From a virus: DNA of 64,000 nucleotides. Below, piece after piece: positions 2,394 to 60,955 of this stretch. The first letter of the stretch is position 1. Every line of letters starts with the position of its first letter. The notes beneath the pieces are model-generated. The model saw only the letters and a list, made by a program, of their open reading frames with translations. It did not search any database and was not told where the DNA came from. A program made the position numbers and the translations under genes. The DNA lies in IMG/VR virus record IMGVR_UViG_3300037088_000232; one strand, given 5' to 3'.

Positions 2394-2617
2394 CCAGTTT
2401 ATAGTCTTTCAACATATTATCGAAAGAATGTATTATACCAGTAGTCATACTTATCACCAGCTTAGATTGTTTTTCTCTTAACCACACAAAAATATTGAAT
2501 GTTTGTTTTACTTCAACGGTACAACAAGCATTCATAACCTTTTCTACAAAATCATCAGATGGACAACATTCTGGTGTTTTTTGAAAAAGGTTTTTTAAAA
2601 AATCATCATTTAGATCT

Positions 2618-2893
2618 TTATTTTTCATCATCAAAGGTTGCTTCTTTTGGGGTTGTTGGTCTTAAAGAATATATATTAATCGAATCAAGAGAATCCTCAT
2701 CAAAGGTGGCTTCCAATGGTACTATTGGCTTCAATATATCAATGTTGATTTCTTTTGTTATAGTAGTGGTAATAATTACTTCTGATTTTGTTGATTTGTC
2801 TCCATCAGCTAATGTTATACTTCCAATAAACATTAACATCAAAAATACTATAATTTTTTTCATAATCTCTTTTTTGTTTTGTCCATTTGACAT
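2618..2893 (-). CDS. small secreted protein (N-terminal signal peptide)
   Basis: MKKIIVFLMLMFIGSITLADG hydrophobic leader; 91 aa. Confidence 0.45.
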   Translation of the reverse strand: MSNGQNKKEIMKKIIVFLMLMFIGSITLADGDKSTKSEVIITTTITKEINIDILKPIVPLEATFDEDSLDSINIYSLRPTTPKEATFDDEK

Positions 2894-2948
2894 CAGATAT
2901 TCAAAAAGGTTACAAAAATTTTTAATATATAAAGAAAAAATCTTTCTT

Positions 2949-4268
2949 ATGTTGTATTCATTCTCAGAATTTTTGAATGAAAGATATGGTCAATTCAATG
3001 ATTCGATAAAATTTACTGATTGGTCAGAATTTAAGGAAAAGTTAAAAAATTCCATAAAAACTGGTTTTAATACTGAAGAAGAACTCGTTAATTTGATGGG
3101 AATGGACTTTAATAAATATACTCAAATCAGAGAGAATATGATTCTTAATTGGAAGGATTCAGTTAGTAAATCTTTATTACATACTGTCGCTCAGATAGGA
3201 CAAAAAATTCCAAAGGAGGGAGCTAGCATTTTTAAAGATCTCAGACAACAAACAGCTATGTTAATTGTTGCCTCTGGTGGATTAGAAAGTAGAAATGTGT
3301 TTGGTGATGTGAATTCTACAAATGGACTTAGATTTTTAAATAGATTTACGGATCTTGAAAAAATTAAAAATACAAACCCTAAAAGTACTAAATATGATTT
3401 TGATCTCCACAAGGATGTCGTGAAAAGATGGGTTGATTTTGATGGTATTCCAGCCTATACGATAACAAATAATTTATCAATTAAGAAAGTTAATAACATA
3501 GTTCAATATGTTTGGTTATATTCCTTCTATCACCATTATAAAATAAAAAAAGATAAACCGAAACTTCCAAAGAATTTATATAGGGGAATAAGGGTATTCC
3601 AAGGATTAAAAGGTAAAGAAATTGAACAATTAAGAAAAGTATCACAAGAACAAGCTAAAGGGATTGATGATAAACATACTACTTGGGTCAAAACTTTCAT
3701 TGATAATTTGATTCAATTTATCGTTGAGAAAGGAATGTCAAAAATATCGGATGGAAAATTCTTATCTTTTACCGAATCAAGGGATATAGCTGCTTATTTC
3801 GCAAATAAAGAGGGTATTATTTTGAGAGTTGATCCGACTAAGGTAAAAATAGTCACTTCACCAAAGACAGAAGAATTTTTTGGAGAAGTAGATTATGTTT
3901 CTGGTAAAAAAGAAAAAGAATATATCATAGAAATTCCAGTAAATTACAAATTTACCATAGATGATATAGAAATTGTGGATGGCGATTATTGGATCGGAGC
4001 AAATAGTCCATTATCGGTTCAATTCTTCGATCATGATGATAAAAAGGCCAACTATGAATTAGATGGAATAAGAATAGAATCTCAGTATGTTTGGAGAAGT
4101 AATACAAGTGGTGGAATCGTATTTAATAATTTAGATTCGAAAGGATATGAAAGTTGGGGAATATCGAGGCGTGAATTTAAGAAGAAATTCAATGTAGATC
4201 CTATGCCAACCGAAGAAAATTTAAATAGAATAAAAGATTTTAAGATATCTAATACTAAAAGATGGTAA
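2949..4268 (+). CDS. CTS-tagged ADP-ribosyltransferase, R-S-E type (T4 Alt-like)
   Basis: Start chosen at internal ATG giving N-terminus MLYSFSEFLNE (T4 CTS-like). Upstream part of listed ORF 2559-4268 is antisense of two minus-strand ORFs. Motifs LYRGIRV (Arg), FLSFTES (S-x-S), EKEYIIEIP (E-x-E + hydrophobics) with Alt-like spacing. Confidence 0.55.
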   Translation: MLYSFSEFLNERYGQFNDSIKFTDWSEFKEKLKNSIKTGFNTEEELVNLMGMDFNKYTQIRENMILNWKDSVSKSLLHTVAQIGQKIPKEGASIFKDLRQQTAMLIVASGGLESRNVFGDVNSTNGLRFLNRFTDLEKIKNTNPKSTKYDFDLHKDVVKRWVDFDGIPAYTITNNLSIKKVNNIVQYVWLYSFYHHYKIKKDKPKLPKNLYRGIRVFQGLKGKEIEQLRKVSQEQAKGIDDKHTTWVKTFIDNLIQFIVEKGMSKISDGKFLSFTESRDIAAYFANKEGIILRVDPTKVKIVTSPKTEEFFGEVDYVSGKKEKEYIIEIPVNYKFTIDDIEIVDGDYWIGANSPLSVQFFDHDDKKANYELDGIRIESQYVWRSNTSGGIVFNNLDSKGYESWGISRREFKKKFNVDPMPTEENLNRIKDFKISNTKRW

Positions 4269-22453: not shown

Positions 22454-22804
22454 ATGGAAAATTTATTAACTTTCGAAAAATTCATAACAGAAATGGCTGG
22501 GAAAAAAGGTTTCATGGATGTTTATACCAAAAAATATGATCCAAGTAAAAGGGGTTATGGTAATCCCGATAAATGGAAAGATGCTTTTGATATTAGAATG
22601 GATAGGGATGTGGCTAAAGGAATCTTAGCTAACAAAGATCCATATGATGTACTTGGTATTCCAAAAACAGCCAATAAATACGAAATAAAGAGTGCATATA
22701 GAAAGTTAGCTATGGAGTTTCATCCAGACAGGAATCCAAATAAAGATACCACAAAAATTTTCCAAGAAATACAAGCTGCCTACGAAATGTTAAGAGAAGA
22801 TTAA
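22454..22804 (+). CDS. CTS-tagged J-domain (DnaJ-like) protein
   Basis: N-term MENLLTFEKFITE; J domain DPYDVLGIPKTANKYEIKSAYRKLAMEFHPDRNP. Confidence 0.8.
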   Translation: MENLLTFEKFITEMAGKKGFMDVYTKKYDPSKRGYGNPDKWKDAFDIRMDRDVAKGILANKDPYDVLGIPKTANKYEIKSAYRKLAMEFHPDRNPNKDTTKIFQEIQAAYEMLRED

Positions 22805-23187: not shown

Positions 23188-23688
23188 TTATTCCATTTCC
23201 AAAACATTCGATGGAATTAATACATTTTTGTTTATGATAACCCAAGCGATATTATCTCCTTTACCATTCAAATCATCTGGAATTTTAACTACATCATACC
23301 CCTCATTCTTTGCATGTGATACGATAAAATCACATTTATGGGTTTTTGACTGAATATCATATTGAAAAAGTCTACCAGAAGTAATATAATTTTCTAAATC
23401 TGTATCTTCTAATTCATCACCATAAATAATTTCATTTTTCACCATCCAACTATATAAATCATATCCGTCACTTAAATCTAAAATTGAGGCTCCATTTTTT
23501 AATTTAAAGGTTAATATATTATTTCCATAATCTTTGGCTACTGAACGAGAGGTACTGGTGTAAATACCTTTTAATCTCTTATCTGGTTCTATTTCACTCT
23601 CAGTTATATTTTCATTCGTTCCATGATATAAAGTAACTAAAAACAGTTCTGATGATTGTTCCTCGAATATTTTGAATTTCTTAATCAT
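23188..23688 (-). CDS. ART-fold-like protein (H-G-T / S-T-S / E-hydrophobic motifs)
   Basis: LYHGTNE ... IYTSTSRS ... KNEIIYGD; weak CTS-like N-term MIKKFKIFEE. Confidence 0.4.
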   Translation of the reverse strand: MIKKFKIFEEQSSELFLVTLYHGTNENITESEIEPDKRLKGIYTSTSRSVAKDYGNNILTFKLKNGASILDLSDGYDLYSWMVKNEIIYGDELEDTDLENYITSGRLFQYDIQSKTHKCDFIVSHAKNEGYDVVKIPDDLNGKGDNIAWVIINKNVLIPSNVLEME

Positions 23689-24472
23689 TTTTCAAAATTT
23701 TTGTTGTATAAATTGTTGATCCAGATTTAATTTTTTCATATTCTGATTTATCAATGATGAACAATTTTGCTGTTTTTACTATTCTTGAAACTTGAAAATG
23801 TAATCCAACATCAGAAAGATTTGTTTCTCCCATACAAACATCAAATGTACAATCTTTTTGTTCTCTTGAAACATTTAACACATATTGTAAATTCTCTATT
23901 TTCTTATTCCAAAATTCCAATAAACTATCTTTGTTTGAAAATGGTGTTAAATTAAAATGTTCACCCCCACTTGGATTTGTTCTTTTTTGAAGATATATAA
24001 AGAATGTTTTTTTATTTTCTTTACCAATTAACTCGTCTCTTATTCCGATCTCTTTAATATTCGGATCATGGGACAATCCAACTTTTATACCAATATTTAA
24101 TTTGTTTATTCGATTCATTTCAGAACGAAAATACATTCCATGTGAACCCCCATAATCCTTATAAATATTTCTTTGTGCTAATAAAACATGAATCATTTCG
24201 TGGGCCAACACATCTCTTAGTTGTTGTCTTGTAAAACTGAAATTTTTAGATATGCATAATCTGTGAGCGGTCATTGTAATACTATGAGTCGTTCTATTTT
24301 TTAATGCCGTTATGTCAACAAAAGCTTTCGAATTCTTATTTGTGACAAAGACAATTGGAATTTTCTTTATTTCATTGTTAAAACATAATTCATTTACATC
24401 GTCAAATTCATTTTCAACATCATGTTCGAATTGAAAATTTTCATTTAAAAAATCTGTGAAGTCTGTTATCAT
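23681..24472 (-). CDS. CTS-tagged SprT-like zinc metalloprotease
   Basis: N-term MITDFTDFLNE; VLAHEMIHVLLAQ...H HExxH motif. Confidence 0.55.
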   Translation of the reverse strand: MITDFTDFLNENFQFEHDVENEFDDVNELCFNNEIKKIPIVFVTNKNSKAFVDITALKNRTTHSITMTAHRLCISKNFSFTRQQLRDVLAHEMIHVLLAQRNIYKDYGGSHGMYFRSEMNRINKLNIGIKVGLSHDPNIKEIGIRDELIGKENKKTFFIYLQKRTNPSGGEHFNLTPFSNKDSLLEFWNKKIENLQYVLNVSREQKDCTFDVCMGETNLSDVGLHFQVSRIVKTAKLFIIDKSEYEKIKSGSTIYTTKILKND

Positions 24473-24812: not shown

Positions 24813-25616
24813 ATGAAACCTTGTGATATCTGTCTGGAAAAAGTTTGTAAAGGGCCGAATGGTCCGGGAACTTGTAATTGTGAAGAATGTTCCGTAAAAG
24901 ATACTTGTCCAAGGAAACTCCACGCTACCGTCAGAATTACTTTAAAATGTACTCAATCCTGTGGACATTGTTGTTATGAATGTTCTCCCAAGATGGATAC
25001 CCACATGACCATAAAAATGGCCAAAAAAGTTTCCGCTTTTCTTAAAAACAACGAAGTACAAATGGTTAATCTCATGGGTGGTGAAATTTTTTGTAATCCA
25101 CATTGGAAAAAAATTCTGGATTTAATTATTCCCTCAGTTCCTTTGGTTCGTATTGTATCCAATGGAGATTGGATTGAAGGATGTCCTGAATTCGCTGAAT
25201 ATCTCACCAAATTCAAAAACTGTTATGTCAGTATCTCAAAAGATGAATGGCATAACATGAAAAATGTTGATAAAGCTCTCAAAGTCCTCAAAGAAAATAA
25301 TATCCTTTTCAATACTCCTAAACACGAAGAAAAAGAAGAAAATTTAGTTCCTGTTGGTAGAGCTGAATTAAGTGGATTCGGTTTTTATGGAACTTTCGGA
25401 TGTTATTGTCATAATCCAGAAAAACAATATTCGTTTCTCATTGACGAAAAAGGTGATATTTTCAAATGTGGATTTGGTATATGGAATTACGATTCAATAG
25501 ATACTTATGTTGATGGTGGATTCACAACAAGATTTAAAGAATTCAACAAAGTTTTTTACGGAGTATTTATTCCCAGCTGTAGTTCTTGTATCAGATCTTG
25601 TAATAATTTCAAATAA
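24813..25616 (+). CDS. radical SAM enzyme with Cys-rich N- and C-termini
   Basis: CTQSCGHC = CxxxCxxC, LMGGEIF (GGE SAM motif); extra Cys clusters. Confidence 0.65.
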   Translation: MKPCDICLEKVCKGPNGPGTCNCEECSVKDTCPRKLHATVRITLKCTQSCGHCCYECSPKMDTHMTIKMAKKVSAFLKNNEVQMVNLMGGEIFCNPHWKKILDLIIPSVPLVRIVSNGDWIEGCPEFAEYLTKFKNCYVSISKDEWHNMKNVDKALKVLKENNILFNTPKHEEKEENLVPVGRAELSGFGFYGTFGCYCHNPEKQYSFLIDEKGDIFKCGFGIWNYDSIDTYVDGGFTTRFKEFNKVFYGVFIPSCSSCIRSCNNFK

Positions 25617-25729: not shown

Positions 25730-28057
25730 TTATTTTGATGTAGTTGGTGGAAGAGTTTTCTGATTTGGTGTCTGATTTGGTGTCATTAGTTTAGTAAGAA
25801 CACCTGACAGTAATCCACTATCACCGTTTGTTACCAATGTATCAGGTACTATTTTCACACCTCCTTGTGCTATTTTTTCAGCGACTTGAACTTGAATAAC
25901 TCCTTCTTGACCAATAGCTGATTTTTGTTTTTCGTAACCTTCTGCAGTGGCTCCCATCTTTGCCTCGATGGCTACCCCCTCAGCTTTACCAATGGCCTCA
26001 ATACCAGCGGCCTCTCCTTCTTTCTTCAATTTTGTAGATTGACCTTCTCCTTCAGCGAGTTTAATTGTCTTTAATTTGACATTCTCGGCCACTTTTACAT
26101 CAATTTCAGAAGCAACCAATTCTGGTTGTTTATTAGCTTCGGCTGTAGTTTTCTCCATAGAGATACGAGATTGTTGAGCTTTCTGTTGTTCAAAGTACAT
26201 TGCCTGTTGCTGTTGAGCGATAATTCTTTCAGTCTGAGTTTTCATCAAATCCTCTGGTAACTGAATTTGACAAATAAGAACACTTACTAATTCGACATGG
26301 TATTTCACCAATTCCTGACGAGCTCTATCTTCAGCCTTCTGTTGTTCTTCATGACGATTTTGCATGAATGCCATGGCTGATGTTGAAGATGCTTGATTAC
26401 GGAATGACGAGTCAATCATCGGGTGGATGACATGCTCGACTAAGTTCTGGATTGAACCAATTTTTGCTACCATATAAGGTGCTTGGTCAGGACGAATCCT
26501 GATAACAACCTTAACGGATACACTGATTTCAAAACCATCATGAGATACAACTTTCAATGGATCAAAACGAGTTTCTTTCGAATCATCCCAATCAATTGTA
26601 ATGTTAGTGGTATCAACCACATATGCGATATAAGCTCTACGGTTCAAGTAATAAATCCCCGGACCAGCTACTTCCTGTTGAATACCTCTGAATCCCTTAG
26701 GAACTACATATCTTTCGATTCCGATATCCAATCTTTTTTCGATTCCACCTGCTGTAACACTATCGTCTTGAACTCCTTCGGCACTTGGTGTAATAATTGG
26801 GGAAGATTCCTTTTCTTTCTCAGCTCTTGCAACATCATCAACCATTTCTTTTACCTGAGGTGGTTCATCTCCGACATTTGATACAAGAACGGCCACTTGA
26901 CCACGCTCAATTACAGCGACATCATCAAGTTCGACACTAAACATCAACGGATTGATATAGTATGTACCCGGCTTCAACACATCAAATTGAGGTCCACGTT
27001 GACCACCATTCTTTAAGAATGTTGTTAAATCTTGGAAATTATTATGTCCTTCAATTGGTTTAGCTACATATTCAGTTTCAGGTAAAGGTTTACCATCACG
27101 AGCGACAACGATACCAATTTTTTTATCTGGAATAACAATAGTTTCTTTAATTTCGACTTTGAATAAAGCCACATTGATACGATATTTACCCGGAAGTAAT
27201 ATGGTAGTCTGAGGCCCTTTTTCTCCACCGTTATCTAAGAAAGTTTTTCCATCTTCAAAATTCTTTTGACCATCAATATATTTGGCTAATAAACGACCAT
27301 CACTGATAGGTTTACCGTCTTGAGCGGTTACGATACCAATCTGTCCTTTTTCAATAACTGTGATTGGAACTGGTGTTACTTTAAATAAAAGAGTATTGAT
27401 ACGATAGTTACCCGGAGGTAAAATTTGAATTTGAGGACCTTTCTCACCACCATTCTTTAAAAAAGAGGCGGCATCTTGAAATAAATCACAATCAACTACT
27501 TTACCAAAAATACGACCAGATGGTACTGGTTGTCCATCAATAGATTCTACTATACCAATTTGATTCTCAGCAATAACTGTAACTGGAACTGTCTTTACAT
27601 TAAAAAGTAAAGGATTAATACGATAGAGTCCCGGTGGTATGATAGGAATTTGAGGCCCTTTTTCACCACCATTGGTTAAGAATAATTCTCCGTCTTGAAA
27701 CAAATTACATTCAATTGGTTTAGCGAAAATTTTCCCAGATGGAACAGGATCTCCATCCGATGAAACAACTAAACCGATTTCATTTGTACCAATAACTGTG
27801 AAATCCTGTTTCTTTCTTTTATAAATGAAAGGGAATAAGAAGTACAAACCCGGACCCATTGCCCTTGCTTGAACTCCAATTTGTTTACTCATGGCAAAAA
27901 CTCTGTTTTTCGGCATCTGTGCACCCATCCAGCGTCTTTCCAATACTTTAATTTCTTTACCACCCACAATAAGGATTGAACTCCAAATCAGGACAATAAG
28001 AAAGATGACAGCTATAGAAATACCTGCTATCATCAAATAAAATAAAACTGTAGCCAT
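25730..28057 (-). CDS. flotillin/SPFH (band-7) family membrane protein with four internal ~77-aa repeats and C-terminal A/E/G-rich flotillin tail
   Basis: N-terminal TM; repeats IGIV..DG.P.P.G...AK.I....FQD...FL.NGGEKGPQ...PG.YRIN.LLF (approx nt 26857-27787); AEGEGQSTKLKKEGEAAGIEAIGKAEG tail. Confidence 0.7.
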   Translation of the reverse strand: MATVLFYLMIAGISIAVIFLIVLIWSSILIVGGKEIKVLERRWMGAQMPKNRVFAMSKQIGVQARAMGPGLYFLFPFIYKRKKQDFTVIGTNEIGLVVSSDGDPVPSGKIFAKPIECNLFQDGELFLTNGGEKGPQIPIIPPGLYRINPLLFNVKTVPVTVIAENQIGIVESIDGQPVPSGRIFGKVVDCDLFQDAASFLKNGGEKGPQIQILPPGNYRINTLLFKVTPVPITVIEKGQIGIVTAQDGKPISDGRLLAKYIDGQKNFEDGKTFLDNGGEKGPQTTILLPGKYRINVALFKVEIKETIVIPDKKIGIVVARDGKPLPETEYVAKPIEGHNNFQDLTTFLKNGGQRGPQFDVLKPGTYYINPLMFSVELDDVAVIERGQVAVLVSNVGDEPPQVKEMVDDVARAEKEKESSPIITPSAEGVQDDSVTAGGIEKRLDIGIERYVVPKGFRGIQQEVAGPGIYYLNRRAYIAYVVDTTNITIDWDDSKETRFDPLKVVSHDGFEISVSVKVVIRIRPDQAPYMVAKIGSIQNLVEHVIHPMIDSSFRNQASSTSAMAFMQNRHEEQQKAEDRARQELVKYHVELVSVLICQIQLPEDLMKTQTERIIAQQQQAMYFEQQKAQQSRISMEKTTAEANKQPELVASEIDVKVAENVKLKTIKLAEGEGQSTKLKKEGEAAGIEAIGKAEGVAIEAKMGATAEGYEKQKSAIGQEGVIQVQVAEKIAQGGVKIVPDTLVTNGDSGLLSGVLTKLMTPNQTPNQKTLPPTTSK

Positions 28058-34706: not shown

Positions 34707-35795
34707 TTATTTTTTCATTCTCCATTTATCATTCAATAATGAACTTTCATAAAAATCAGCATCCACTGTAAATCCTGTTAACCATTTAATAACTCTGACA
34801 TCCGCAGTTGTCAATTTTTCCTTGATAACTAAAATATTTCCTGAAATTCTTGAACAATCATCCGATGGAAATTCACATATACCTTTTTTCTTTAAGATAC
34901 ATTCATGATTAGTTTTCATCTTAATTTCAAAATCAAAAGGAATCAAATGTTTAATATCAGTTGGTTGATTATTTTTAAAACCAAAACATTTATCTTTCAT
35001 CACACATTTTTCACAATTCATTTCAGTGGGACGATAATAATGAGCATTGTAATCTCTTTCTAAATCGTGTGTATAAGATATTAAACAGGATGTTTTTCTA
35101 AATATTGGAATATTGTATAAATCTGATAACTCATCAAATATCTGTTGAACATCATTAGAAATTGATTTCTTATGTCCAAATTTAAATCCGGGATATGGTT
35201 TCAAATCTATATTGCTTTCTTCCCAATATTTTACTACCTCAGGAATACCTTGTAATCCAGAATAACCAATTGCAATATTAAAATCTTTAGCAATACTGAA
35301 TACATTTTTAATAGTTTCAAATGAATCGTTTATTCCATAACAAATTGGCCTAAATTCAATGGATTTATGATATTTATATTTTCTAAAATTTGCTACTCGT
35401 AAATTATATGATAATCGTTTGTTTGAATATCTATCAAACTCATGATCAATACCAAAAGTTGAAAAAGCCAAATGTAAATCAAGATTGATATCATTCGGTA
35501 AATCGAAATCTAATAATTCACCCTTTGTAATTATAACAACCGGACCTTTATGATTTTCTTTTTCTAATTTATGTAAATACTTTAGTGTTTTGTCTCTTTG
35601 AATCAATGGATCACCATAAAATAAATTAATTGAAATGGGTAGATTGATGAAATTTTTATTGATTTTGGATGGTAGACATGAATATTCGAATTCAGTATTA
35701 TTCTGGGATACTCTACAAAAGGCACAACCCAAACAATTCTTAGTATTTCGACCTATACAACAAAACGATTTAGATATGTATAATTCATCTATCAT
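34707..35795 (-). CDS. Cys-rich protein, possible Fe-S/radical-SAM-related enzyme (non-canonical motif)
   Basis: N-term SFCCIGRNTKNCLGCAFC; further CEKCVMKDKC and CEFPSDDC clusters. Confidence 0.3.
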   Translation of the reverse strand: MIDELYISKSFCCIGRNTKNCLGCAFCRVSQNNTEFEYSCLPSKINKNFINLPISINLFYGDPLIQRDKTLKYLHKLEKENHKGPVVIITKGELLDFDLPNDINLDLHLAFSTFGIDHEFDRYSNKRLSYNLRVANFRKYKYHKSIEFRPICYGINDSFETIKNVFSIAKDFNIAIGYSGLQGIPEVVKYWEESNIDLKPYPGFKFGHKKSISNDVQQIFDELSDLYNIPIFRKTSCLISYTHDLERDYNAHYYRPTEMNCEKCVMKDKCFGFKNNQPTDIKHLIPFDFEIKMKTNHECILKKKGICEFPSDDCSRISGNILVIKEKLTTADVRVIKWLTGFTVDADFYESSLLNDKWRMKK

Positions 35796-36392: not shown

Positions 36393-36914
36393 TCAATTGT
36401 TATGTCCATTACAATTTGTTATTTTTTCTATGTCTTTGATATATATATTAAAATAACTATCTACTATGATATTAAAAAATTCATTAAATTGTTTAGTATA
36501 AGTAGAAATAGTAGTTATATTTTTATCAATCCATTTAAATTCGTTAATTTCTTCTGAATAAGAAACATTTTCGAAGATAACTGAATGGTTATCTTGCTTT
36601 ATGTGGGGTCTACCATGTTTAGAAACAAAATATTTTTCAATTAATGGATCTCTATCACATTTGAAATCAATAAGAATATCATTATAAAAAATCAATCGTA
36701 TATTCAATATATCAATATTTAGCATCTTGTATCTTTGACATACAAATTTTCTAACAAGAGGGCAATCCGTAGAATCTGTTATTTCTTTAATACATGGATA
36801 TTTAGAAATAACAAAATCCACTTTCGTTTTGTTTAATTTAAAATCACCCAATCCCGTTTGTGATTTTGTAGTGATACAAAACATTAATAGTAATATAATT
36901 AATAAAGTCCTCAT
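36393..36914 (-). CDS. secreted protein (signal peptide)
   Basis: MRTLLIILLLMFCITTKSQTG leader; 173 aa. Confidence 0.45.
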   Translation of the reverse strand: MRTLLIILLLMFCITTKSQTGLGDFKLNKTKVDFVISKYPCIKEITDSTDCPLVRKFVCQRYKMLNIDILNIRLIFYNDILIDFKCDRDPLIEKYFVSKHGRPHIKQDNHSVIFENVSYSEEINEFKWIDKNITTISTYTKQFNEFFNIIVDSYFNIYIKDIEKITNCNGHNN

Positions 36915-36978
36915 TCTTTTTATAGATGAAAACTAATTACTGGTTTAACATTTTAATATATAAAGCGAAATAAATTTA

Positions 36979-37176
36979 GTGTTTATGGATAAATTTTCAG
37001 ATTTACTCAAGGAAAATTCCGAATGGTTGGGTCATAAGGAATTAAAAAAAATCCAAAAACTTCCACAAAGACAGGATTCACTATCTGAACAAATGCAAGA
37101 TTTATATCATGTAGCCAATCATTTTGGATTATATGACGCGGCTGATTACATCCGTAAAAATTTCATTGAAAAATAA
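36979..37176 (+). CDS. small protein, weak CTS-like N-terminus
   Basis: MFMDKFSDLLKEN. Confidence 0.35.
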   Translation: MFMDKFSDLLKENSEWLGHKELKKIQKLPQRQDSLSEQMQDLYHVANHFGLYDAADYIRKNFIEK

Positions 37177-37188
37177 AGGATAATTATT

Positions 37189-37437
37189 ATGAAAAGATTT
37201 ACTCAATTTGTAAAAGAAGAAAAAGAGTACAGAGCAAAAGCCAGAACTGATAGATTTCATTTCGGAACTGAAATAACTGGTGTTGAAGTGGAACTCATTT
37301 CTGATTTGTATGGTAGTGAGGTTTCTGATACTGAAGTAAGAGTGGTAAGTGAGGGAACAATTTGTGTAATAGCTGGTGATACCATAGAACAATTTAAGAA
37401 AGAATTACAAGATGTAATTGATAAATACAAAATATGA
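37189..37437 (+). CDS. CTS-tagged small protein
   Basis: MKRFTQFVKEE; first of four overlapping CTS genes. Confidence 0.4.
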   Translation: MKRFTQFVKEEKEYRAKARTDRFHFGTEITGVEVELISDLYGSEVSDTEVRVVSEGTICVIAGDTIEQFKKELQDVIDKYKI

Positions 37438-38027
37438 AAACATTTACTGAATTTTTATTGGAAGCTAAGGGGGGTAAGAAAGTAATAGCTTATCACTTAT
37501 CTAACCAATTGGAACATATGTTAAAAGCTGATTTCAAAATGGACCATAGTAGTGATATTTCCATATTTGGTCGTGCCATTTATTTTTCCAGCAGTCCAGA
37601 TATAAGATTTTATCCGATGAGGGGAGGTAAAAAAATATATACTTGTAAATTTGAAATAACATTGGAAGAACCTTTATTGGACATGAATCGTGAGATACCA
37701 GTATTTGAAGCGAACCGTCTTTTAAATGATTTTCGTATCATATTAGAGAATAAGAATCCAACATATTTGAGAGAATTACAGAATTATAATTTTGAAAGTG
37801 AATTTAAAGATACTATTCAGATGGGAGAATTTTTTGATACCATATACACTCGTCATGTAGAATCAAGTAAGTATTTCGATTATTTCATACATAATTATTT
37901 GAAATACAATTCATTTCAATATTTTCAAAATTCTTTAACAGATTATATAACTGAAAAAGAGGATTATGGCATATCATATGGAGTATATGATAAAAAGAAT
38001 ATAAAATTCATAGATGGACCATTTTAA
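37434..38027 (+). CDS. CTS-tagged ART-fold-like protein (H / S-S-S / E motifs)
   Basis: MKTFTEFLLEA (7 of 11 identical to T4 CTS); VIAYHLSN ... IYFSSSPD ... KFEITL. Confidence 0.4.
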   Translation: MKTFTEFLLEAKGGKKVIAYHLSNQLEHMLKADFKMDHSSDISIFGRAIYFSSSPDIRFYPMRGGKKIYTCKFEITLEEPLLDMNREIPVFEANRLLNDFRIILENKNPTYLRELQNYNFESEFKDTIQMGEFFDTIYTRHVESSKYFDYFIHNYLKYNSFQYFQNSLTDYITEKEDYGISYGVYDKKNIKFIDGPF

Positions 38028-38454
38028 AACATTTAAAGACTTTTTACTTGAATCTACCAACATAAAAACCAAAGAAGAATTATTTGGTAAAAAAATGTAT
38101 CATGGTACTACCTTAGAAACTTGGAGAGAATTGGAGAAAAGTTATTTATTTGTAACAGATGAAGAAGAACATGCTCAATATCACGCTATAAGTCGAACAG
38201 AGGGAATGATACATAATGGGGATAAGGAATACGATAAATTAACGGCTGTCGTGTTTGAAATTGTGATAGATGAAGAAATATTAAATTTAGAATGGGTAGT
38301 TGATGATGATGATGGGAACAGATCATTTTTTGAAACATGGTTAGATTCTTACAATGCAGTAGGAACATTTGTAATTATGGGAATTGATTCAAGTAAATTT
38401 AAAGAAGTATTCAAAGAAAAAATAACAAAAGAAACATCAATAAGATATTTATGA
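38014..38454 (+). CDS. CTS-tagged ART-fold-like protein (H-G-T)
   Basis: MDHFKTFKDFLLES; KMYHGTTLETW ... LFVTDEE ... VVFEIVI. Confidence 0.4.
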   Translation: MDHFKTFKDFLLESTNIKTKEELFGKKMYHGTTLETWRELEKSYLFVTDEEEHAQYHAISRTEGMIHNGDKEYDKLTAVVFEIVIDEEILNLEWVVDDDDGNRSFFETWLDSYNAVGTFVIMGIDSSKFKEVFKEKITKETSIRYL

Positions 38455-39350
38455 AAAATTTTAGAACATATGATGAATTTCTCTTGGAATTTCAGAAAAA
38501 AGATGTTTCGTTGTTAGAGACTTTGGATGACTATTTTACCATCGGATTTGAAATTGAAATGGACACTGACCATAGAAGAATTAGAAGTCTACCTACTCCC
38601 CCAAAAATAATAACCAATGAATCGAAGAAATTAAATGTATTATCGATTCAGGATAGAAGAAAAGTGATGGATATCAAAAATAATTTTCCAAATTTCTTCC
38701 GAAAATATTTCGATATTTTGGAATATCATTATGAAGGGACAGTTTCATCTGGAATGGAATTTGTAACTCCACCATTTCATAGCTTACAAGAATCTAAAGA
38801 ATTCATTAAAATATTTTTCGAAGATTTTGAAAAACAAAATAAATGGTTTTTTAATGATAAAACAAGTATTCATATTAATATCGGTACAAAAAAACCGAAA
38901 TCAAGATGGAATGTTGTTAAAGGTGTTATGATGTTATCGGATGATTATACATTTAAAAACATTGAAGCTCGAAAAACCTGTGGATATTGTAGTAGTTTAA
39001 AGACTGAGATTTTTATGATGATAATAAACAATGATAAAAATTATCAAAAGACATCTAATAATAGAAATATAACTGACATGAATAAGAATCAAATAGAGAA
39101 CCTTATTGAACAAATTATTCAAAAAATATTTACATCCACTCAAAAAACTTATAATATTAATTTTTGGAAATTATTCAATAAAAACTATGTAGAATTTCGT
39201 CAAGTTGGTGGAGAAAATATAAATGAAAATATTGTAATTAATAAAATGATGTATTTTGTTTATTGTGTTTATTTAATGACCAGTTCATATAAGAAAGATG
39301 AATATATTAGAAAATTATTCAGCTTCGTAGAAAAAATTAGAAAATTTTAG
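38451..39350 (+). CDS. CTS-tagged glutamine-synthetase-like amidoligase (Amidoligase_2-like)
   Basis: MKNFRTYDEFLLE; GFEIEMDTD, SGMEFVTPPF, TSIHINIG motifs. Confidence 0.5.
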   Translation: MKNFRTYDEFLLEFQKKDVSLLETLDDYFTIGFEIEMDTDHRRIRSLPTPPKIITNESKKLNVLSIQDRRKVMDIKNNFPNFFRKYFDILEYHYEGTVSSGMEFVTPPFHSLQESKEFIKIFFEDFEKQNKWFFNDKTSIHINIGTKKPKSRWNVVKGVMMLSDDYTFKNIEARKTCGYCSSLKTEIFMMIINNDKNYQKTSNNRNITDMNKNQIENLIEQIIQKIFTSTQKTYNINFWKLFNKNYVEFRQVGGENINENIVINKMMYFVYCVYLMTSSYKKDEYIRKLFSFVEKIRKF

Positions 39351-39380: not shown

Positions 39381-40283
39381 TTAATCTTTTTCCTTAACTA
39401 TTTTTTCAACATCTTTTTTCTTTAATTGTGGCATTTCCTTTCTCTCGGTGAATTCACTATGAGGACTTGGAATTTTTTTAATGTTTTTAGCTAGATATTC
39501 AGTTGGACTTAATTTTTTCTTATCTTTATGAAAGATTTTTTCATAGAGATCTTCAACCATTTTAGTTTTATCCTTACCTGTTCTCCAAGGATCTTCATCA
39601 GCCATTTTTTTAATTATCTTTTGAAGTTTATCTGGTAATTTTTCCTCTTTTGCTAATTTATAAAGATTGTACTTCTGTTCACCAGTTTGATCTTGAGTTC
39701 TGGATTGATATTCTTTTAAAATAGCATTCAAAATAGGTAGTGCCTTTTCTATTGGAAGATTAATTTTGGTACATTTAATTTTACATTTTGGGTTTAGGAT
39801 AAATACAGAACCCCATCGGTGATGACCATCAATAATATAGTTATCTGAACTGATTAAGATATCTCTGTCATTATACTTACCTTTAATAACATCCTTGACG
39901 AATTCTGCGTTACTTAGAATCCTTGATATAATTTGGTCCAAGTAAATGGTTGTCTGACCGGGATTGAGTTTCTTAGCCCTTATTTTGACCTTTTCTCCCT
40001 CTATGTCATTTTCTTCAACTTCTTTTAAAAATTTAGTTCTATTGGATTCAACTTCTAAGAAATCACCGATTTTTTTCTTCATGTTTTGAAGATCCACCTT
40101 ACCATCCTCGCTCATTACTCCCATTTGCTTGAGTACATCGTTGTATTCTCTTTGATTTATCTTCTTGTCTAACATTTCTTTTATTTGAGTATATCTTATC
40201 ATAAAAACACTGATTAGTTTTATTAGAATATATATTGTTTTCCAATTTGGAAAATTTTTGGAAAAATTATAATATATATACAA
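39381..40283 (-). CDS. ParB/Srx-fold (ParB-like nuclease domain) protein; true start may be the internal Met near 40199
   Basis: ISSDNYIIDGHHRW (DGHHR motif). Confidence 0.5.
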   Translation of the reverse strand: MYIYYNFSKNFPNWKTIYILIKLISVFMIRYTQIKEMLDKKINQREYNDVLKQMGVMSEDGKVDLQNMKKKIGDFLEVESNRTKFLKEVEENDIEGEKVKIRAKKLNPGQTTIYLDQIISRILSNAEFVKDVIKGKYNDRDILISSDNYIIDGHHRWGSVFILNPKCKIKCTKINLPIEKALPILNAILKEYQSRTQDQTGEQKYNLYKLAKEEKLPDKLQKIIKKMADEDPWRTGKDKTKMVEDLYEKIFHKDKKKLSPTEYLAKNIKKIPSPHSEFTERKEMPQLKKKDVEKIVKEKD

Positions 40284-40369: not shown

Positions 40370-40618
40370 ATGAAAAAGTTAATTGCAATTTTAAGTATTT
40401 TAATGATTGTTTCTTTTACGGCTTGTAACAACACAGTCAAAGAGGAAGCTGTGGCTAAAGCAAAAACAGATTCTATCAGAGTTGATTCTATTAAGAAAGA
40501 TTCAATTCAGAAGGTTTTAGTTTTAACTCAAAAGGCTGATTCTATTAAGAAGGCTGATTCTATTACCAAATGTACAAAGAAATGTACAAAGAAAACAAAG
40601 AAAGTTGTGAAGAAGTAA
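40370..40618 (+). CDS. small lysine-rich lipoprotein with DSIKK repeats
   Basis: Signal peptide + lipobox FTAC; repeats DSIKKDSIQK/ADSIKKADSI, CTKKCTKK. Confidence 0.5.
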   Translation: MKKLIAILSILMIVSFTACNNTVKEEAVAKAKTDSIRVDSIKKDSIQKVLVLTQKADSIKKADSITKCTKKCTKKTKKVVKK

Positions 40619-40636: not shown

Positions 40637-40670
40637 GAAAAGGGATGTCGTTGACACCCCTTTTTCTTTT
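40637..40670. terminator. bidirectional rho-independent terminator
   Basis: gggatgtc-gtt-gacacccc stem followed by T5CT4; A-run on other side. Confidence 0.65.
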
Positions 40671-41550
40671 ATAATTGTTCCTTACATTTCAATAAATTCT
40701 GTTCTTGCTCTTTTGTTAATTGAGGATATTCCAGATTTAATTTTTTCATTCTCTCAACCAAAATTTTCGAAACAATAAGTCGTGATGTTTTTTTATGATT
40801 GGCCGGAACAACATACCAAGGACAATCATCGGTGGATGTTTCATTAATCAGATCTTCATAACATTTCATATAATCACCCCAGAACTGACGCTCTTTTAAG
40901 TCAGATTCCGAAAATTTCCAATTCTTAGATTTATCATCAATCCTCTCCAGTAATCTTTCTTTTTGTTCTTTTTTGGATATGTTCAAGAATATTTTTATAA
41001 CGACTGTTCCATTTTTATGAAGCATCTTTTCAAAATTTCTTATCTGTTCATATCTTTCTTCAAAGATATCCTTATGAATCAAAACGGTTGGAATTCTCTG
41101 AAATTTTATCAGATCATGAACCTTAACTACGAGAACTTCTTCATAATAGGAACGATTAAAGATACCAATGTGTCCTCTCTCTGGTAAACTTTTGTGAGCT
41201 TTCCATAAGAAATCATGATTCAATTCCTCTGAAGTGGGTTGTTTAAAACTATAAACCTGAGTTGCTTGGGGATTAAGACCCGACATTACATGCTTAACGA
41301 TTCCGTCTTTACCAGCCGTATCAAGCGCTTGAATAATTAATAGTATTGAATATTTACCATCAGCATATAACTTATCCTGTAAATCAATGAGGCTTTTTAT
41401 GTTCCCCTCTATTTGTTCGGTAATATCGGAATCGACATCATTCAAATCAATATCATTTAAATTAATATCAACTTTTCCCTTACCGTTTATTTCAAATTGT
41501 TTTATATTCATATTTTTTCCTCTAAAAATTGTTTTATATCGAGCATACAT
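40669..41550 (-). CDS. ppk2: polyphosphate kinase 2 (PPK2) family nucleotide phosphotransferase
   Basis: Walker A DTAGKDG, IFNRSYYEE, KIFLNISKKEQKERLLER, PWYVVPANHK. Confidence 0.85.
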   Translation of the reverse strand: MYARYKTIFRGKNMNIKQFEINGKGKVDINLNDIDLNDVDSDITEQIEGNIKSLIDLQDKLYADGKYSILLIIQALDTAGKDGIVKHVMSGLNPQATQVYSFKQPTSEELNHDFLWKAHKSLPERGHIGIFNRSYYEEVLVVKVHDLIKFQRIPTVLIHKDIFEERYEQIRNFEKMLHKNGTVVIKIFLNISKKEQKERLLERIDDKSKNWKFSESDLKERQFWGDYMKCYEDLINETSTDDCPWYVVPANHKKTSRLIVSKILVERMKKLNLEYPQLTKEQEQNLLKCKEQL

Positions 41551-50118: not shown

Positions 50119-50604
50119 ATGGATATTTACACAAAATGGAGTCCTATTATGGACGCTCTAAAAGTAACAGACGAAAAAGTTAGAAAAATTATGGCTGAAT
50201 ACGCTGAATTTCATCTTAAACATGAAATTGAAAATTTAATAGTAACAAAACTTGGTGAGGATGATATTGCTCAAAACTTATTACCAGTTTCTTTAAAAAT
50301 TCTATCTCAATTAAATATAAAGGATAAAAATGTTATATTGAAAGAAGGATTACCAACTTTAAGTTTCGATGTTGAGGTTGATAGTGCTCAAATAACAGCA
50401 ATTAAAGAATCTTCTTTGGATAGTTCAACCATCGTTCAACAGTTAGAAAGGATATTAGTTGATAAATTAGTTGACTATATAAACAAAGAATTAGAAACTA
50501 AAAATAATTTGTATCTTACAACCATCGCTCAATCAATAAGTATCATTTCAACAGAGGAATGGACACCAAGGATGTATTTACATTCTCGTATACATATTGA
50601 CTAA
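50119..50604 (+). CDS. hypothetical protein
   Basis: 161-aa ORF. Confidence 0.4.
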   Translation: MDIYTKWSPIMDALKVTDEKVRKIMAEYAEFHLKHEIENLIVTKLGEDDIAQNLLPVSLKILSQLNIKDKNVILKEGLPTLSFDVEVDSAQITAIKESSLDSSTIVQQLERILVDKLVDYINKELETKNNLYLTTIAQSISIISTEEWTPRMYLHSRIHID

Positions 50605-57033: not shown

Positions 57034-57654
57034 TTATTTACCCTTGTATATATTAATTATTTTTATCTGGTTATCATTAAAAACTATCCAATCCCATCTT
57101 TCATCTGATGACCATTCTATTTCATTCAAATAATGTATGGAATCATAACCCTGTTCAATTAAATATTGTTTGTAATCAAGTGTTAATTTCTTTTTATCAA
57201 ATGTGTTATCTTCTAATAGAAAATGATTCAATGAAATTATTTTATTTTCTCTATCGAATGGTGTTATATTACTATATGTTCTATATAATAAGTAATTCTT
57301 TTCAATGAATTCCTTGTCAACATAGTCATTTTCACCTCCCCATTTCAGCATATCCCTCACTAATTGACTTTCTCTCTTTTTTAAAATCTTGTTAACCTTG
57401 ATTTCAACTTCATAAACAACATAATTGGGTGGTTTTGAGAATAATCTTTCGGCCATTTTTTTATCGGGGGTGAAGTGAATTCCAAGAAAATCCATTAAAT
57501 GTACAACATTTCGGCTACTTCCTAATTTTTCATTTGAAAATTTATCGAATACTATTCCACTTCCATGATATAATGGACCAACTATATTGTTTTTTTTTTC
57601 AAATATGTAAAATTTCGTTACCATTTTATTTCCAATCTTGGTTTTAAATCCCAC
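57034..57654 (-). CDS. ART-fold-like protein, H-G-S paralog A
   Basis: GPLYHGSG ... VVHLMDFLGIHFT ... YVVYEVEIKV. Confidence 0.4.
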   Translation of the reverse strand: MGFKTKIGNKMVTKFYIFEKKNNIVGPLYHGSGIVFDKFSNEKLGSSRNVVHLMDFLGIHFTPDKKMAERLFSKPPNYVVYEVEIKVNKILKKRESQLVRDMLKWGGENDYVDKEFIEKNYLLYRTYSNITPFDRENKIISLNHFLLEDNTFDKKKLTLDYKQYLIEQGYDSIHYLNEIEWSSDERWDWIVFNDNQIKIINIYKGK

Positions 57655-58202
57655 ACTTTTAATACTTTTATTTGTTCTGATTTAAAGATAATCCAATCAA
57701 ATCTTTTAATGTCTGGTGATTCTATTTCATTTATATACTTAATACAATCATATCCTTGATTCATTAGGTGGTTTTTATATTCCAATGAAATTTCTTTTGC
57801 TTTTCCATCTGTTAAATTAAATAATTGATTCATTAAACAATTCTTTGTTCCAAAATATGGTAAATCAAATATGTTTTTTGATGGAAAAATTGATAAATCG
57901 ATTATCTTTTTTTCAAGTCCAAACTTCAACATTTCTTTGACTAAATTACCCTCTTTTATTTTCAAGAATTTGTTATATTTCAATTCTATTTCGTAGATAA
58001 TATAATCAGGTGGATTTGTAAATCTTTCAGCAACAGTATCATTTTCAGTAAAATGAATCCCAAGAAAACTTAATAAATGACCATCTTGACCCAATCTATT
58101 AAAGTCAAAGATATCAAATTTACGGCCAGAACCATGAAATAATGGATGTTCATATATTTTAGATTCATTAATGAAACTATTATAAGACAACAGGTTTATC
58201 AC
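57618..58202 (-). CDS. CTS-tagged ART-fold-like protein, H-G-S paralog B
   Basis: MINLLSYNSFINE; HPLFHGSG ... FLGIHFTEND ... YIIYEIELK; clear paralog of 57034-57654. Confidence 0.45.
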   Translation of the reverse strand: MINLLSYNSFINESKIYEHPLFHGSGRKFDIFDFNRLGQDGHLLSFLGIHFTENDTVAERFTNPPDYIIYEIELKYNKFLKIKEGNLVKEMLKFGLEKKIIDLSIFPSKNIFDLPYFGTKNCLMNQLFNLTDGKAKEISLEYKNHLMNQGYDCIKYINEIESPDIKRFDWIIFKSEQIKVLKVWDLKPRLEIKW

Positions 58203-59398: not shown

Positions 59399-60955
59399 TT
59401 ATATATTTTTATCAACTACCCATAAGTATTTAGCTGGTATGCTCTTTCCTTGTATGTAACAATTACCTGTAAATAAACTCATTTGGTCTTTATATAATAT
59501 ACCTAAATTCAAATCATCTGTATTTATACCCACAATCGCATATGGTTCTTTATCTGTTTTATCTATCTGCTTCCATACTTTTAATTCCTTTATTAATGAA
59601 TATAAAACCTCTTTGTTCGTAGACATATAGATTCTCGGTGGGTACTTGTGTCGAATATCTTCCGACTTGGATTTTAAACCATGTTTCAAAATATCATTTA
59701 ATCTGGACATTGGACAAGCATGATATAATGTATCTGGAATTAATACATACCCCTTACTCCACTTCGGAGAAATACTTAATGTATGTGTGTTCTTAATCCT
59801 TGTCATTGATGCCCTTGAATACCAACCAAATTTGTTTATGTATTTCAATAACTTGTCAATAAACTCTTTATCATCTAAATCTTCATACCACTTGTAAATA
59901 TCTTCATATTTATCATGACCTTTATAAATACCCCATATCGTTATGGATTCACCACTTATACCTTCTGGTCTGTCAATGTTAATTTCAGGAAACCTTTTTA
60001 TTAACTTGTTATACATAGTCTGACCATCTATCGATTCATTATTCTTCTCTAATAATACAAATTCAAATTCTCCAAAATTGATTATCATTCTATGATGATT
60101 TTCATAAATATTTTTACTCTTTCCATTGAAAGTTGTGTTTTCACCAGTTGCTATTTTTATTCGTTTAGGATTTGTTACCACATATTCATCAGCGAACTGT
60201 GCTCCAGTGTCCGCATTCCTGATTATTTTACAATGAATACTACTATCTGGAACTCGATTTAAACCCACACCTACATTCTCCCCATCTTCTTCCTCAATAA
60301 TTGTCGCTTTTATAAAGCATGGATATATGTAACCCTCTTGATTGTCGTATTTACTTTGAATTTCTTCCAATTCCTTATTCAATTCAATATCGTATTTTTT
60401 ATCCAAGTGTACAAATTCACTTAGTTTTGGACTGATTTCATCTATGTTCTTCTTACCTATCCAAAACAATAAATCCATCAATGTCTTTGATACTTCTTTC
60501 CAATTATCTGATTTCACCCAACTACTTAAATTATAATAACCAGTAGACTTACCATACTCCTTTTCTATGAAAGATAACATTCCATCCCATACCGACATAT
60601 CTACCGTCTTTAAAAATTCAATCTTGTCTTTTTCTATTTTCTCGTTATATTTCTCGTTAACCTCATTCCTTTCATTGTAATACGATCTTGGATAACATTG
60701 TGAATAATGTGTTGCAACATTCAGGTTTGAAAACCAAAAAGCATATTCAGCACCCATCTGACCAGAAGTATCATTCATACCATATTTGAATTCTGTGAAT
60801 TTATAAGGGCTTCCATGATAAACTACCAATGGTTTACCATTTTTATCCACTATTTTACTGGTCTTTTTATTCGGATGTTCCCAATCACCAAACCAATCCT
60901 TAAACTCTTTGGAATGAATGATTTTCTCATATGTTTCTTTGTCTAACTTCATCAC
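59399..60955 (-). CDS. hypothetical protein with N-terminal H-G-S segment
   Basis: 518 aa; LVVYHGSPYKFTEF near N-terminus. Confidence 0.4.
   Translation of the reverse strand: MMKLDKETYEKIIHSKEFKDWFGDWEHPNKKTSKIVDKNGKPLVVYHGSPYKFTEFKYGMNDTSGQMGAEYAFWFSNLNVATHYSQCYPRSYYNERNEVNEKYNEKIEKDKIEFLKTVDMSVWDGMLSFIEKEYGKSTGYYNLSSWVKSDNWKEVSKTLMDLLFWIGKKNIDEISPKLSEFVHLDKKYDIELNKELEEIQSKYDNQEGYIYPCFIKATIIEEEDGENVGVGLNRVPDSSIHCKIIRNADTGAQFADEYVVTNPKRIKIATGENTTFNGKSKNIYENHHRMIINFGEFEFVLLEKNNESIDGQTMYNKLIKRFPEINIDRPEGISGESITIWGIYKGHDKYEDIYKWYEDLDDKEFIDKLLKYINKFGWYSRASMTRIKNTHTLSISPKWSKGYVLIPDTLYHACPMSRLNDILKHGLKSKSEDIRHKYPPRIYMSTNKEVLYSLIKELKVWKQIDKTDKEPYAIVGINTDDLNLGILYKDQMSLFTGNCYIQGKSIPAKYLWVVDKNI

Follow-up and report, generated by a model that had tools for sequence, protein, structure and literature searches.

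Tagged Operon Encoding ADP-Ribosyltransferase-Fold and Glutamine Synthetase-Fold Proteins, Candidate Capsid-Packaged Effectors of a Huge T4-Related Phage

Genes of the tagged operon

The IMG/VR virus record IMGVR_UViG_3300037088_000232 was analyzed as a single 64-kb stretch (64,000 nucleotides, referred to here as the window), which has a GC content of ~28% and is ~93% coding under genetic code 11. Among its open reading frames (ORFs) are four on the plus strand, p1 to p4, that occupy positions 37189 to 39350, overlap by 4, 14, and 4 nucleotides, and each begin with a short tag resembling the capsid targeting sequence of phage T4. The original prediction described them as four overlapping tagged genes, and the ORF coordinates, the overlaps, and all the quoted motifs are exactly as claimed. 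The operon starts earlier, however. A fifth tagged ORF, p0 (36985 to 37176, plus strand; 63 residues, tag MDKFSDLLKEN), heads it 12 nucleotides upstream of p1 and is the conserved first gene in related contigs, with the tag kept in L002, L003, and L004. The tagged set was incomplete as well, as it left out the convergent gene at 39381 to 40202 (minus strand). This gene encodes a ParB/Srx-like protein of 273 residues with the N terminus MIRYTQIKEML and a DGHHRW motif, which matches PHROG 2859 (E value of 1.6e-15) and, weakly, ParBc_2 (E value of 0.09).

The first gene of the overlapping set, p1 (37189 to 37437, plus strand), encodes 82 residues with the N terminus MKRFTQFVKEE; among the related contigs compared, its ortholog is found only in L003. 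p0 has no family match, and Pfam, PHROGs, and NCBIfam scans return no usable direct match for p1 to p4. Two weak and unsupported matches were seen for p1, to PIN_10 (E value of 0.019) and to PHROG 3151, the T4 internal protein IPI (E value of 0.087). A relationship of p1 to IPI was rejected, as neither BLASTP against T4 IPI nor tblastn supports it.

A promoter-like element, TAATATATA, lies at 36954 to 36962 (plus strand), 22 nucleotides upstream of p0. It occurs in 17 copies in the window, compared to 4.2 ± 2.2 expected, and nearly all of them are 5 to 38 nucleotides before an ATG (e.g., at 2923, 19422, 22425, 28156, 36954, and 52274 on the plus strand and 58917, 57047, and 7527 on the minus strand). 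Seven copies precede tagged genes. Besides the one at p0, the element is found before six strictly tagged gene starts, as well as before a gene for a small capsid protein-like product described below. It likely represents a shared phage promoter class and is possibly a late promoter. Scans for sigma-70 promoters and intrinsic terminators found nothing above chance.

p2 (37434 to 38027, plus strand; 197 residues, N terminus MKTFTEFLLEA) has 14 homologs, with the invariant segments YH.S, FG.AIYFSS.P, and C.F.I.L.EP. Its AlphaFold2 (AF2) model is of moderate confidence, with a predicted local distance difference test (pLDDT) score of 75.6 and a predicted template modeling (pTM) score of 0.72. The best match of this model among viral protein models is annotated as "PolyVal ADP-Ribosyltransferase" (E value of 4e-7, template modeling scores of 0.57 to 0.59), followed by ART-PolyVal-like and large polyvalent proteins. 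The ADP-ribosyltransferase (ART) fold proposed for this protein is thus borne out by the predicted structure, and p2 is, by its model, an ART-fold protein of the ART-PolyVal-like type. p2 itself has no Pfam match at E values up to 10, PF18760 and PF00644 included, and one of its homologs weakly matches the PARP profile (E value of 0.02). His21 and Tyr50 are invariant in the family and fit the H-Y-acid configuration described for ART-PolyVal (PMC5512222). Glu79 is near invariant, and position 74 varies among Glu, Lys, and Ser. An α+β domain of the cyanophage A4 ejection protein gp28 (PDB 9k3a_B) also appears to match p2; unlike p2, gp28 is a multidomain protein of 1,071 residues with lytic transglycosylase and M23 domains, and its matching domain has neither an assignment by its authors nor a known ART activity.

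p3 (38014 to 38454, plus strand; 146 residues, N terminus MDHFKTFKDFLLES) belongs to a family defined by a "YHGT" motif, for which an indexed search returned 3 homologs and an exhaustive profile search 27 representatives. The residues Tyr29-His30-Gly31-Thr32, Asp97, Trp109, Ser112, and Gly117 are invariant, and Tyr44 and Leu45 are near invariant; as a pattern, the conservation reads YHGT...YLF...DDD. This domain is found C-terminal to ART-PolyVal in P0079 and P0069, N-terminal to a GNAT domain in P0060, and inside the 1,704-residue protein P0073; by its family, p3 thus adds to the operon a second domain, "YHGT," of the kind that makes up polyvalent proteins. The original prediction had treated p3 as another ART-like protein, but profile comparisons by hhalign and hmmsearch with ART families (p2, the ART-PolyVal paralogs of the window, and Pfam) revealed no significant similarity. 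Nor did the Glu residues that it had named in the third motif of each protein fare better: the one in FEITL of p2 (Glu74) and the one in VFEIVI of p3 (Glu81) both vary within their families. Two weak signals, from PDB 8tfz searched with the p3 family profile (E value of 0.39) and from PF01885 matched by a single family member (E value of 0.19), point to the NAD+-binding lobe of Tpt1/KptA, and an ART-like fold with an H-Y-D triad (His30, Tyr44, and Asp97) is plausible. A third such signal (NF002013, E value of 0.0084) falls on the YHGT domain of the fusion protein P0006 and not on p3. P0006 was considered as a p3::p4 fusion and rejected as such, its N-terminal YHGT domain being no significant member of the p3 family (E value of 0.2). 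In hhalign and hmmsearch comparisons among the families of p2 and p3 and the ART-PolyVal paralogs of the window, run on both tagged and tag-free sequences, the alignments were confined to the tag or to the YHGT tetrapeptide. Iterative hidden Markov model and phmmer searches over ~4,000 ORFs from the window, the relative LR756501 (discussed below), and IMG/VR loci found no bridge from ART-PolyVal to p2 or p3.

p4 (38451 to 39350, plus strand; 299 residues, N terminus MKNFRTYDEFLLEF, tag MKNFRTYDEFLLE) shows no direct match to Amidoligase_2 (PF12224) or to any PHROG, and its profile yields only noise against PDB sequences. The p4 family profile, built from 35 sequences, aligns with P0036 at 97.8% probability; P0036, in turn, passes the PF12224 cutoff (26.4 bits versus 22) in a region that overlaps the p4 profile alignment. 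The AF2 model of p4 is good (pLDDT of 85.5, pTM of 0.86) and identifies it, by fold, as a glutamine synthetase (GS)-fold carboxylate-amine ligase, similar to Amidoligase_2. Nine residues are invariant in the 35 sequences (Glu34, Glu36, Gly101, Glu103, His141, Asn143, Arg174, Glu248, and Arg250), and they appear to correspond to the ExE, GxE, HxN, and ExR metal- and ATP-binding positions of the superfamily. Fold, profile link, and conserved positions agree with the original assignment of the fourth gene as a GS-like amidoligase, and with all the conserved catalytic-type positions intact, p4 is predicted to be an active ATP-dependent ligase. Genes of the Amidoligase_2 family are known in phages (phiEco32- and LUZ24-like phages, PHROG 2443) and share with p4 the GS-like carboxylate-amine ligase fold. 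They usually adjoin a gene for γ-glutamyl cyclotransferase, whereas p4 has neither a cyclotransferase nor an amidotransferase neighbor and, unlike them, carries a capsid-type tag and lies next to ART-fold genes.

An identical p4 protein is encoded on a contig of 736,551 bp, and the only matches to p4 among GenBank phages are in four uncultured genomes of 634 to 735 kb, which belong to the Mahaphage clade, whose hosts are predicted to be Bacteroidetes (PMC7162821). A megablast search with 20 kb of the window against GenBank phages, those four genomes included, gave no nucleotide match. The best explanation is that the window comes from a huge (~736-kb) T4-related phage of the Mahaphage group. 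Three related contigs (L002 to L004) have the same gene order, p0-(p1)-p2-p3-p4 and then the ParB-like gene in convergent orientation; in these and in L104 to L106, the ParB-like protein encoded after p4 has 259 to 273 residues, and its gene is called with 264 to 273 residues on other contigs of the same phage. In L003, the ligase is fused to a YHGT-type domain, as it is in P0006, and in L004 and P0005, it is fused to a ParB/Srx-like domain that is recognized weakly (SbnI, E value of 0.005; ParB_N, E value of 0.015). In L001 and LR756501, which are more distant relatives, the gene for the ligase comes after that of an unrelated repeat protein, and p2 and p3 are not adjacent to it.

The N-terminal tag and the head module of related phages

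In phage T4, the internal proteins and Alt enter the prohead by means of an N-terminal capsid targeting sequence of 10 to 20 residues that is removed by the protease gp21 (PMC5694885, PMC10229621). In the T4 record, the N termini read MKTYQEFIAE in IPII and IPIII, MKTFKEF in IPI, and MELITELFDE in Alt. The tags in the operon are of the M-K-x-F-x-x-F-(L)-L-E type in all four genes, p1 to p4. They are near identical to these T4 propeptides in sequence and in length (10 to 13 residues), and they have the same ending, [ILV]-x-E (MKTFTEFLLE in p2); the first seven residues of p2, MKTFTEF, differ from those of IPI at a single position.

To count the tags, a strict motif, [FY]xx[FY][ILVF]xE, was considered N-terminal when it fell within the first 16 residues from the start. 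It occurs 19 times in 104 greedily called genes of the window, and 12 of these occurrences are N-terminal (binomial P of 3.6e-9); looser variants bring the number of tagged genes to ~17. The first 39 nucleotides of the tagged genes are only 41% identical, which indicates that the tag is conserved at the protein level, with selection acting on the peptide, and rules out a nucleotide-level repeat as its origin. The AF2 models show the tag as an N-terminal extension that is not part of the folded domains, with pLDDT below 50 for residues 1 to 11 of p4 and 1 to 13 of p2, and in the family alignments of p2, p3, and p4, the conserved domains begin after it. Its Glu residue is invariant in the 35 p4 homologs (Glu13) and near invariant in those of p2 (Glu10). 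Orthologous operons on related contigs retain their tags (e.g., MITYSEFILEN, MVHFKTYTQFLLEN, and MIISYNDFLFEF), and a hydrophobic-x-Glu junction is kept internally in the fusion proteins P0006, P0005, and P0044. The tag is real and genome-wide.

The same motif was looked for in T4 itself. Among 840 Met starts in 108 kb of the T4 genome, the strict N-terminal motif is found in IPII, IPIII, and one small ORF. The latter encodes 76 residues in the uvsW.1 region (AF158101, ~114,210, plus strand; L115:6210) and has the sequence MLLEFKQFLYEASIDE. The strict motif is also present in gp23, as FGSFLTE ending at Glu65, the known gp21 maturation site that releases the 65-residue propeptide.

The head genes were sought with T4 head proteins in the whole sequence of LR756501, a 735-kb relative. 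It encodes a Portal_T4 protein (236 bits) and a Gp23 major capsid protein (MCP; 91 bits), and between their genes, in the same placement as in T4, is an ORF of 811 residues (73901 to 76336; L010:24901-27336). The N-terminal part of its product is Peptidase_S77-like (E value of 6.6e-5, 22.9 bits; the Pfam cutoff is 27 bits), with GEFDHPD and VSSRAAG corresponding to GELNHPP and VSSRGLG of T4. The C-terminal part consists of ~14 tandem repeats of KYSEYIAENLDKSID, of the Y.EYIAE type, which is the tag motif. IMG/VR contains ~40 full-length homologs of this protein (loci among L024 to L103), each with 9 to 16 repeats, mostly YSEYIAE, YAEYIAE, or YSEYLAE, and the portals encoded next to them are 55 to 100% identical to that of LR756501. 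Altogether, the S77-like protease with scaffold is found in LR756501 and 48 IMG/VR relatives and is absent from the window; a metagenome scan for the head module belonging to the genome of the window yielded only seven other contigs. As the scaffold repeats of the relatives and the T4 protease site share the motif, the tag would be, in this clade, one copy of the protease-linked scaffold repeat, matching the T4 protease site. The CTS-like character that the original prediction ascribed to the tag (CTS standing for capsid targeting sequence) is thus supported both by the T4 internal proteins and by these tandem repeats.

At least 66 of the ~972 genes in LR756501 are N-terminally tagged (e.g., MIKKYNTYINE and MKTFNQFINE), which suggests a very large tagged proteome. 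Three of them, at 62965 to 66169, are paralogs located directly upstream of the portal gene. On another contig, a homolog of p2 is encoded next to a T4 gp13-like neck gene.

The window carries, at 50119 to 50604 (plus strand), the gene with the upstream TAATATATA element mentioned above. Its product, a mini-MCP of 161 residues, matches the N-terminal propeptide region and a C-terminal strand of the LR756501 MCP (E value of 7e-14). The two proteins share the propeptide KW.PI.DAL...EYAE, including the conserved ...AEYAE... site. The mini-MCP may be a truncated capsid protein paralog or a decoy.

Other tagged proteins and genes flanking the operon

Four paralogs of ART-PolyVal (PF18760) are encoded in the window, all on the minus strand, at 23188 to 23688, 57034 to 57624, 57618 to 58202, and 59399 to 60955, and two of them score above the Pfam cutoff. 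The adjacent pair at 57034 to 57624 and 57618 to 58202 scores 41.2 bits (cutoff of 31.2) and 31.0 bits and carries the tags MVTKFYIFEK and MINLLSYNSFINE, respectively; the tagged ART-PolyVal-like protein at 23188 to 23688 scores 28.2 bits. In three of the four paralogs, a clear N-terminal tag is directly followed by (L/F)(Y/F)HG(S/T). Other tagged products include a DnaJ domain protein (22454 to 22804, plus strand; 71 bits) and an SprT-like zincin (23681 to 24472, minus strand; 33.5 bits). An ORF of 569 residues at 2559 to 4268 (plus strand) has an internal tagged start, MLYSFSEFLNE, at 2949, 17 nucleotides after a TAATATATA element; this may be the real start of the gene, or the ORF may give two products.

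The operon is flanked by a gene for a signal peptide protein (36393 to 36914, minus strand) and a small lipoprotein-like gene (40370 to 40618, plus strand; MKKLIAILSILMIVSFTAC, with DSI[KR] repeats), both of which occupy the same positions in L002 and L003. A gene for polyphosphate kinase 2 (40669 to 41550, minus strand; PF03976, 230 bits) adjoins the module, and radical-SAM-like genes are located at 34707 to 35795 (minus strand) and 24813 to 25616 (plus strand). An SPFH/Band 7 domain (82 bits) forms the C-terminal part of a 775-residue protein encoded at 25730 to 28057 (minus strand), and a similar gene is found near the module in a related 56-kb contig. An ORF of 361 residues at 1308 to 2393 (plus strand) represents part of a family B DNA polymerase, from the end of the exonuclease domain to the start of the polymerase domain, and may be a split or interrupted polB.

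Candidate capsid cargo and its alternatives

The reading that we consider the most probable, although by no means certain, is that the operon encodes capsid-packaged effectors processed by the prohead protease and amounts to a polyvalent protein whose domains are spread over individually tagged genes. The operon proteins are probably capsid cargo delivered with the DNA because their tags are nearly identical to the capsid-loading signal of T4. Under this model, the genes at 36985 to 39350 would form one translationally coupled operon for five small proteins, each made with a T4-type propeptide of 10 to 13 residues. The tag would dock each protein onto the prohead scaffolding core, which in the relatives would be a tandem array of this motif joined to the S77 protease. 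The protease would then remove the tag by cutting behind its conserved Glu, in the manner of T4 gp21, which cleaves the internal proteins at FIAE and gp23 at FLTE-65. The mature enzymes would be retained inside the capsid and would reach the host along with the DNA. There, p2 might act as an NAD+-using transferase and p4 as an ATP-dependent ligase, with the tagged ParB/Srx-like neighbor as part of the module.

Several points weigh against this model. Packaging into the virion is a prediction from the gene sequences, and the tagged share, 12 to 17% of the genes in the window, would make a very large cargo set if all of these proteins were packaged. The link between protease and scaffold comes from relatives in which p4 is only 41% identical, and the Peptidase_S77 match falls below the Pfam cutoff (22.9 versus 27 bits). 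The p2 model is of moderate confidence and the catalytic acid is uncertain; neither p2 nor p4 matches its own Pfam family directly, and p3 is placed by family membership. Finally, the pairing of p2 and p3 with the ligase is clade specific, because the ligase genes of L001 and LR756501 are not beside p2 or p3.

The tag could also target the prohead and be cleaved there while the proteins act in the capsid or in the producing cell, or serve as structural internal proteins with dead ART and GS folds; internal filler, scaffold accessories, and enzymes modifying the packaged DNA or head proteins would be examples. T4 internal proteins are mostly abundant, small, and nonenzymatic, the acidic catalytic residue of p2 is uncertain, and PARP-like pseudoenzymes (PARP13, TASOR, and RCD1) are among its structural matches, all of which would suit such a role. 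However, the conserved GS-type positions of p4 are all intact throughout its 35 homologs, His21 and Tyr50 of p2 are invariant, and the cotagged ART-PolyVal, SprT-like zincin, ParB, and DnaJ proteins constitute a set predicted to be active in the invaded cell; we regard this alternative as unlikely. An equally improbable one is that the motif has nothing to do with capsids and is a cytoplasmic signal, such as a chaperone or protease recognition site, a stability determinant, or a translation-start preference in an AT-rich genome, with the operon encoding an intracellular pathway; such a pathway might, for instance, modify nucleotides, NAD+, or DNA and also involve the ParB/Srx-like, radical-SAM-like, and polyphosphate kinase 2 genes close by. 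The fixed spacing of the motif and its invariant Glu go beyond codon bias, even if AT-rich genomes favor N termini rich in Lys, Phe, Ile, and Asn. The motif coincides with the sequence that targets T4 proteins to the capsid and with the site at which gp23 is cleaved, is repeated 9 to 16 times in the protease-scaffold protein of the relatives, and persists at internal domain junctions of fusion proteins. What speaks for a cytoplasmic role is that the window has no structural genes, that the radical-SAM-like, polyphosphate kinase 2, and ParB-like genes are close by, and that the tagged genes are so numerous.

A separate question is whether the ART-fold and ligase genes are functionally coupled. 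p2, p3, and p4 probably share a single target in the host or modify one another, because their order is conserved in at least three related contigs and because a YHGT-type (P0006) or ParB/Srx (P0005, L004) domain is fused directly to the ligase. Against this stands a substantial chance, somewhat short of even, that their adjacency reflects operon packing of unrelated cargo with separate targets: phage operons often have overlaps of 4 nucleotides, polyvalent proteins join domains whose functions are independent, and the ligase of L001 and LR756501 is encoded after an unrelated repeat protein, with neither p2 nor p3 beside it. The most specific proposal, a coinjected composite system in which p2, p3, and p4 place an ADP-ribosyl- or phosphoryl-type mark and, by ATP-dependent ligation, an amide linkage on the same host macromolecule, or in which the ligase gates the ART as a metaeffector, is the least probable of those considered here. 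A pairing of an ART with an ATP-dependent amino acid ligase, both delivered into a target cell, exists in Legionella, where the glutamylase SidJ, an enzyme of kinase rather than GS fold, regulates the mono-ADP-ribosyltransferase SidE. The Legionella proteins are delivered through type IV secretion, and no homology to p2 or p4 is implied. If it were true, the composite system would be an injected two-chemistry effector of a kind not described for any phage, within a capsid delivery system that would address well over 60 enzymes per genome by means of a T4-like tag.

Phage T4 is among the closest precedents. The relatives of the phage in the window carry a T4-type portal, a Gp23 MCP, and an S77-like protease, as in T4. 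The differences are the scale, with a handful of tagged genes in T4 versus dozens per genome here (at least 66 in LR756501), and the scaffold: gp22, gp67, and gp68 of T4 do not have the strict motif, whereas the scaffold of the relatives consists of tandem tag-like repeats fused to the protease. In the cargo, the ART of T4 Alt is of the R-S-E type and p2 is of the H-Y-acid PARP/ART-PolyVal type (PMC5512222); a GS-fold ligase is a further candidate, unlike in T4. In the giant phages phiKZ, 201phi2-1, and SPN3US, a T4-related prohead protease likewise cuts many head-internal proteins at x-x-E motifs, and the host receives these proteins by ejection, but their propeptides are mostly >100 residues long and use an [S/A/G]-x-E motif, whereas the tags here are short and T4-like.

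Another precedent is the polyvalent proteins of phages and conjugative elements (Iyer et al. 2017, PMC5512222), for which packaging and injection are predicted and whose domains include ART-PolyVal (PF18760), DdrB-like ParB, and zincins. The set described here resembles them in the ART-PolyVal-like p2 and four Pfam-detectable paralogs, in the ParB-like protein and the SprT-like zincin, and in being composed of predicted early effectors delivered with the DNA. A polyvalent protein is one giant polypeptide with 2 to 15 effector domains, whereas p0 to p4 are separate small tagged ORFs with their own starts and stops, and fused forms are found only in the relatives (P0006, P0005, P0044, P0079, and P0073). 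The original prediction held that an injected ART-fold protein paired with an amidoligase had no characterized precedent. This does not apply to the ART, as injected ARTs are known from T4 Alt and from the ART-PolyVal domains of polyvalent proteins (PMC5512222). It does apply to the ligase, since no publication was found in which a GS-like amidoligase is described among the cargo of a capsid; amidoligases are absent from the polyvalent-protein paper (PMC5512222), and a literature search found no paper connecting huge phages with capsid targeting tags. The new element is best described as the combination, in a huge phage, of T4-style tagged cargo with polyvalent effector domains as separately tagged genes, in which the predicted GS-fold ligase would be an unreported type of cargo.

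Should the tag indeed direct proteins to the capsid, the injected repertoire of uncultivated huge phages could be predicted from an N-terminal [FY]xx[FY][ILV]xE that matches the scaffold repeats. This repertoire, with its ART-fold proteins, zincin, DnaJ, ParB/Srx, and GS-fold ligase, would then be far larger and more enzymatic than that of any model phage. Its members would be candidate enzymes for early host takeover or antidefense, the tag itself would be a portable signal for loading foreign proteins into large capsids, and the ART-ligase module would provide a specific, testable pair.

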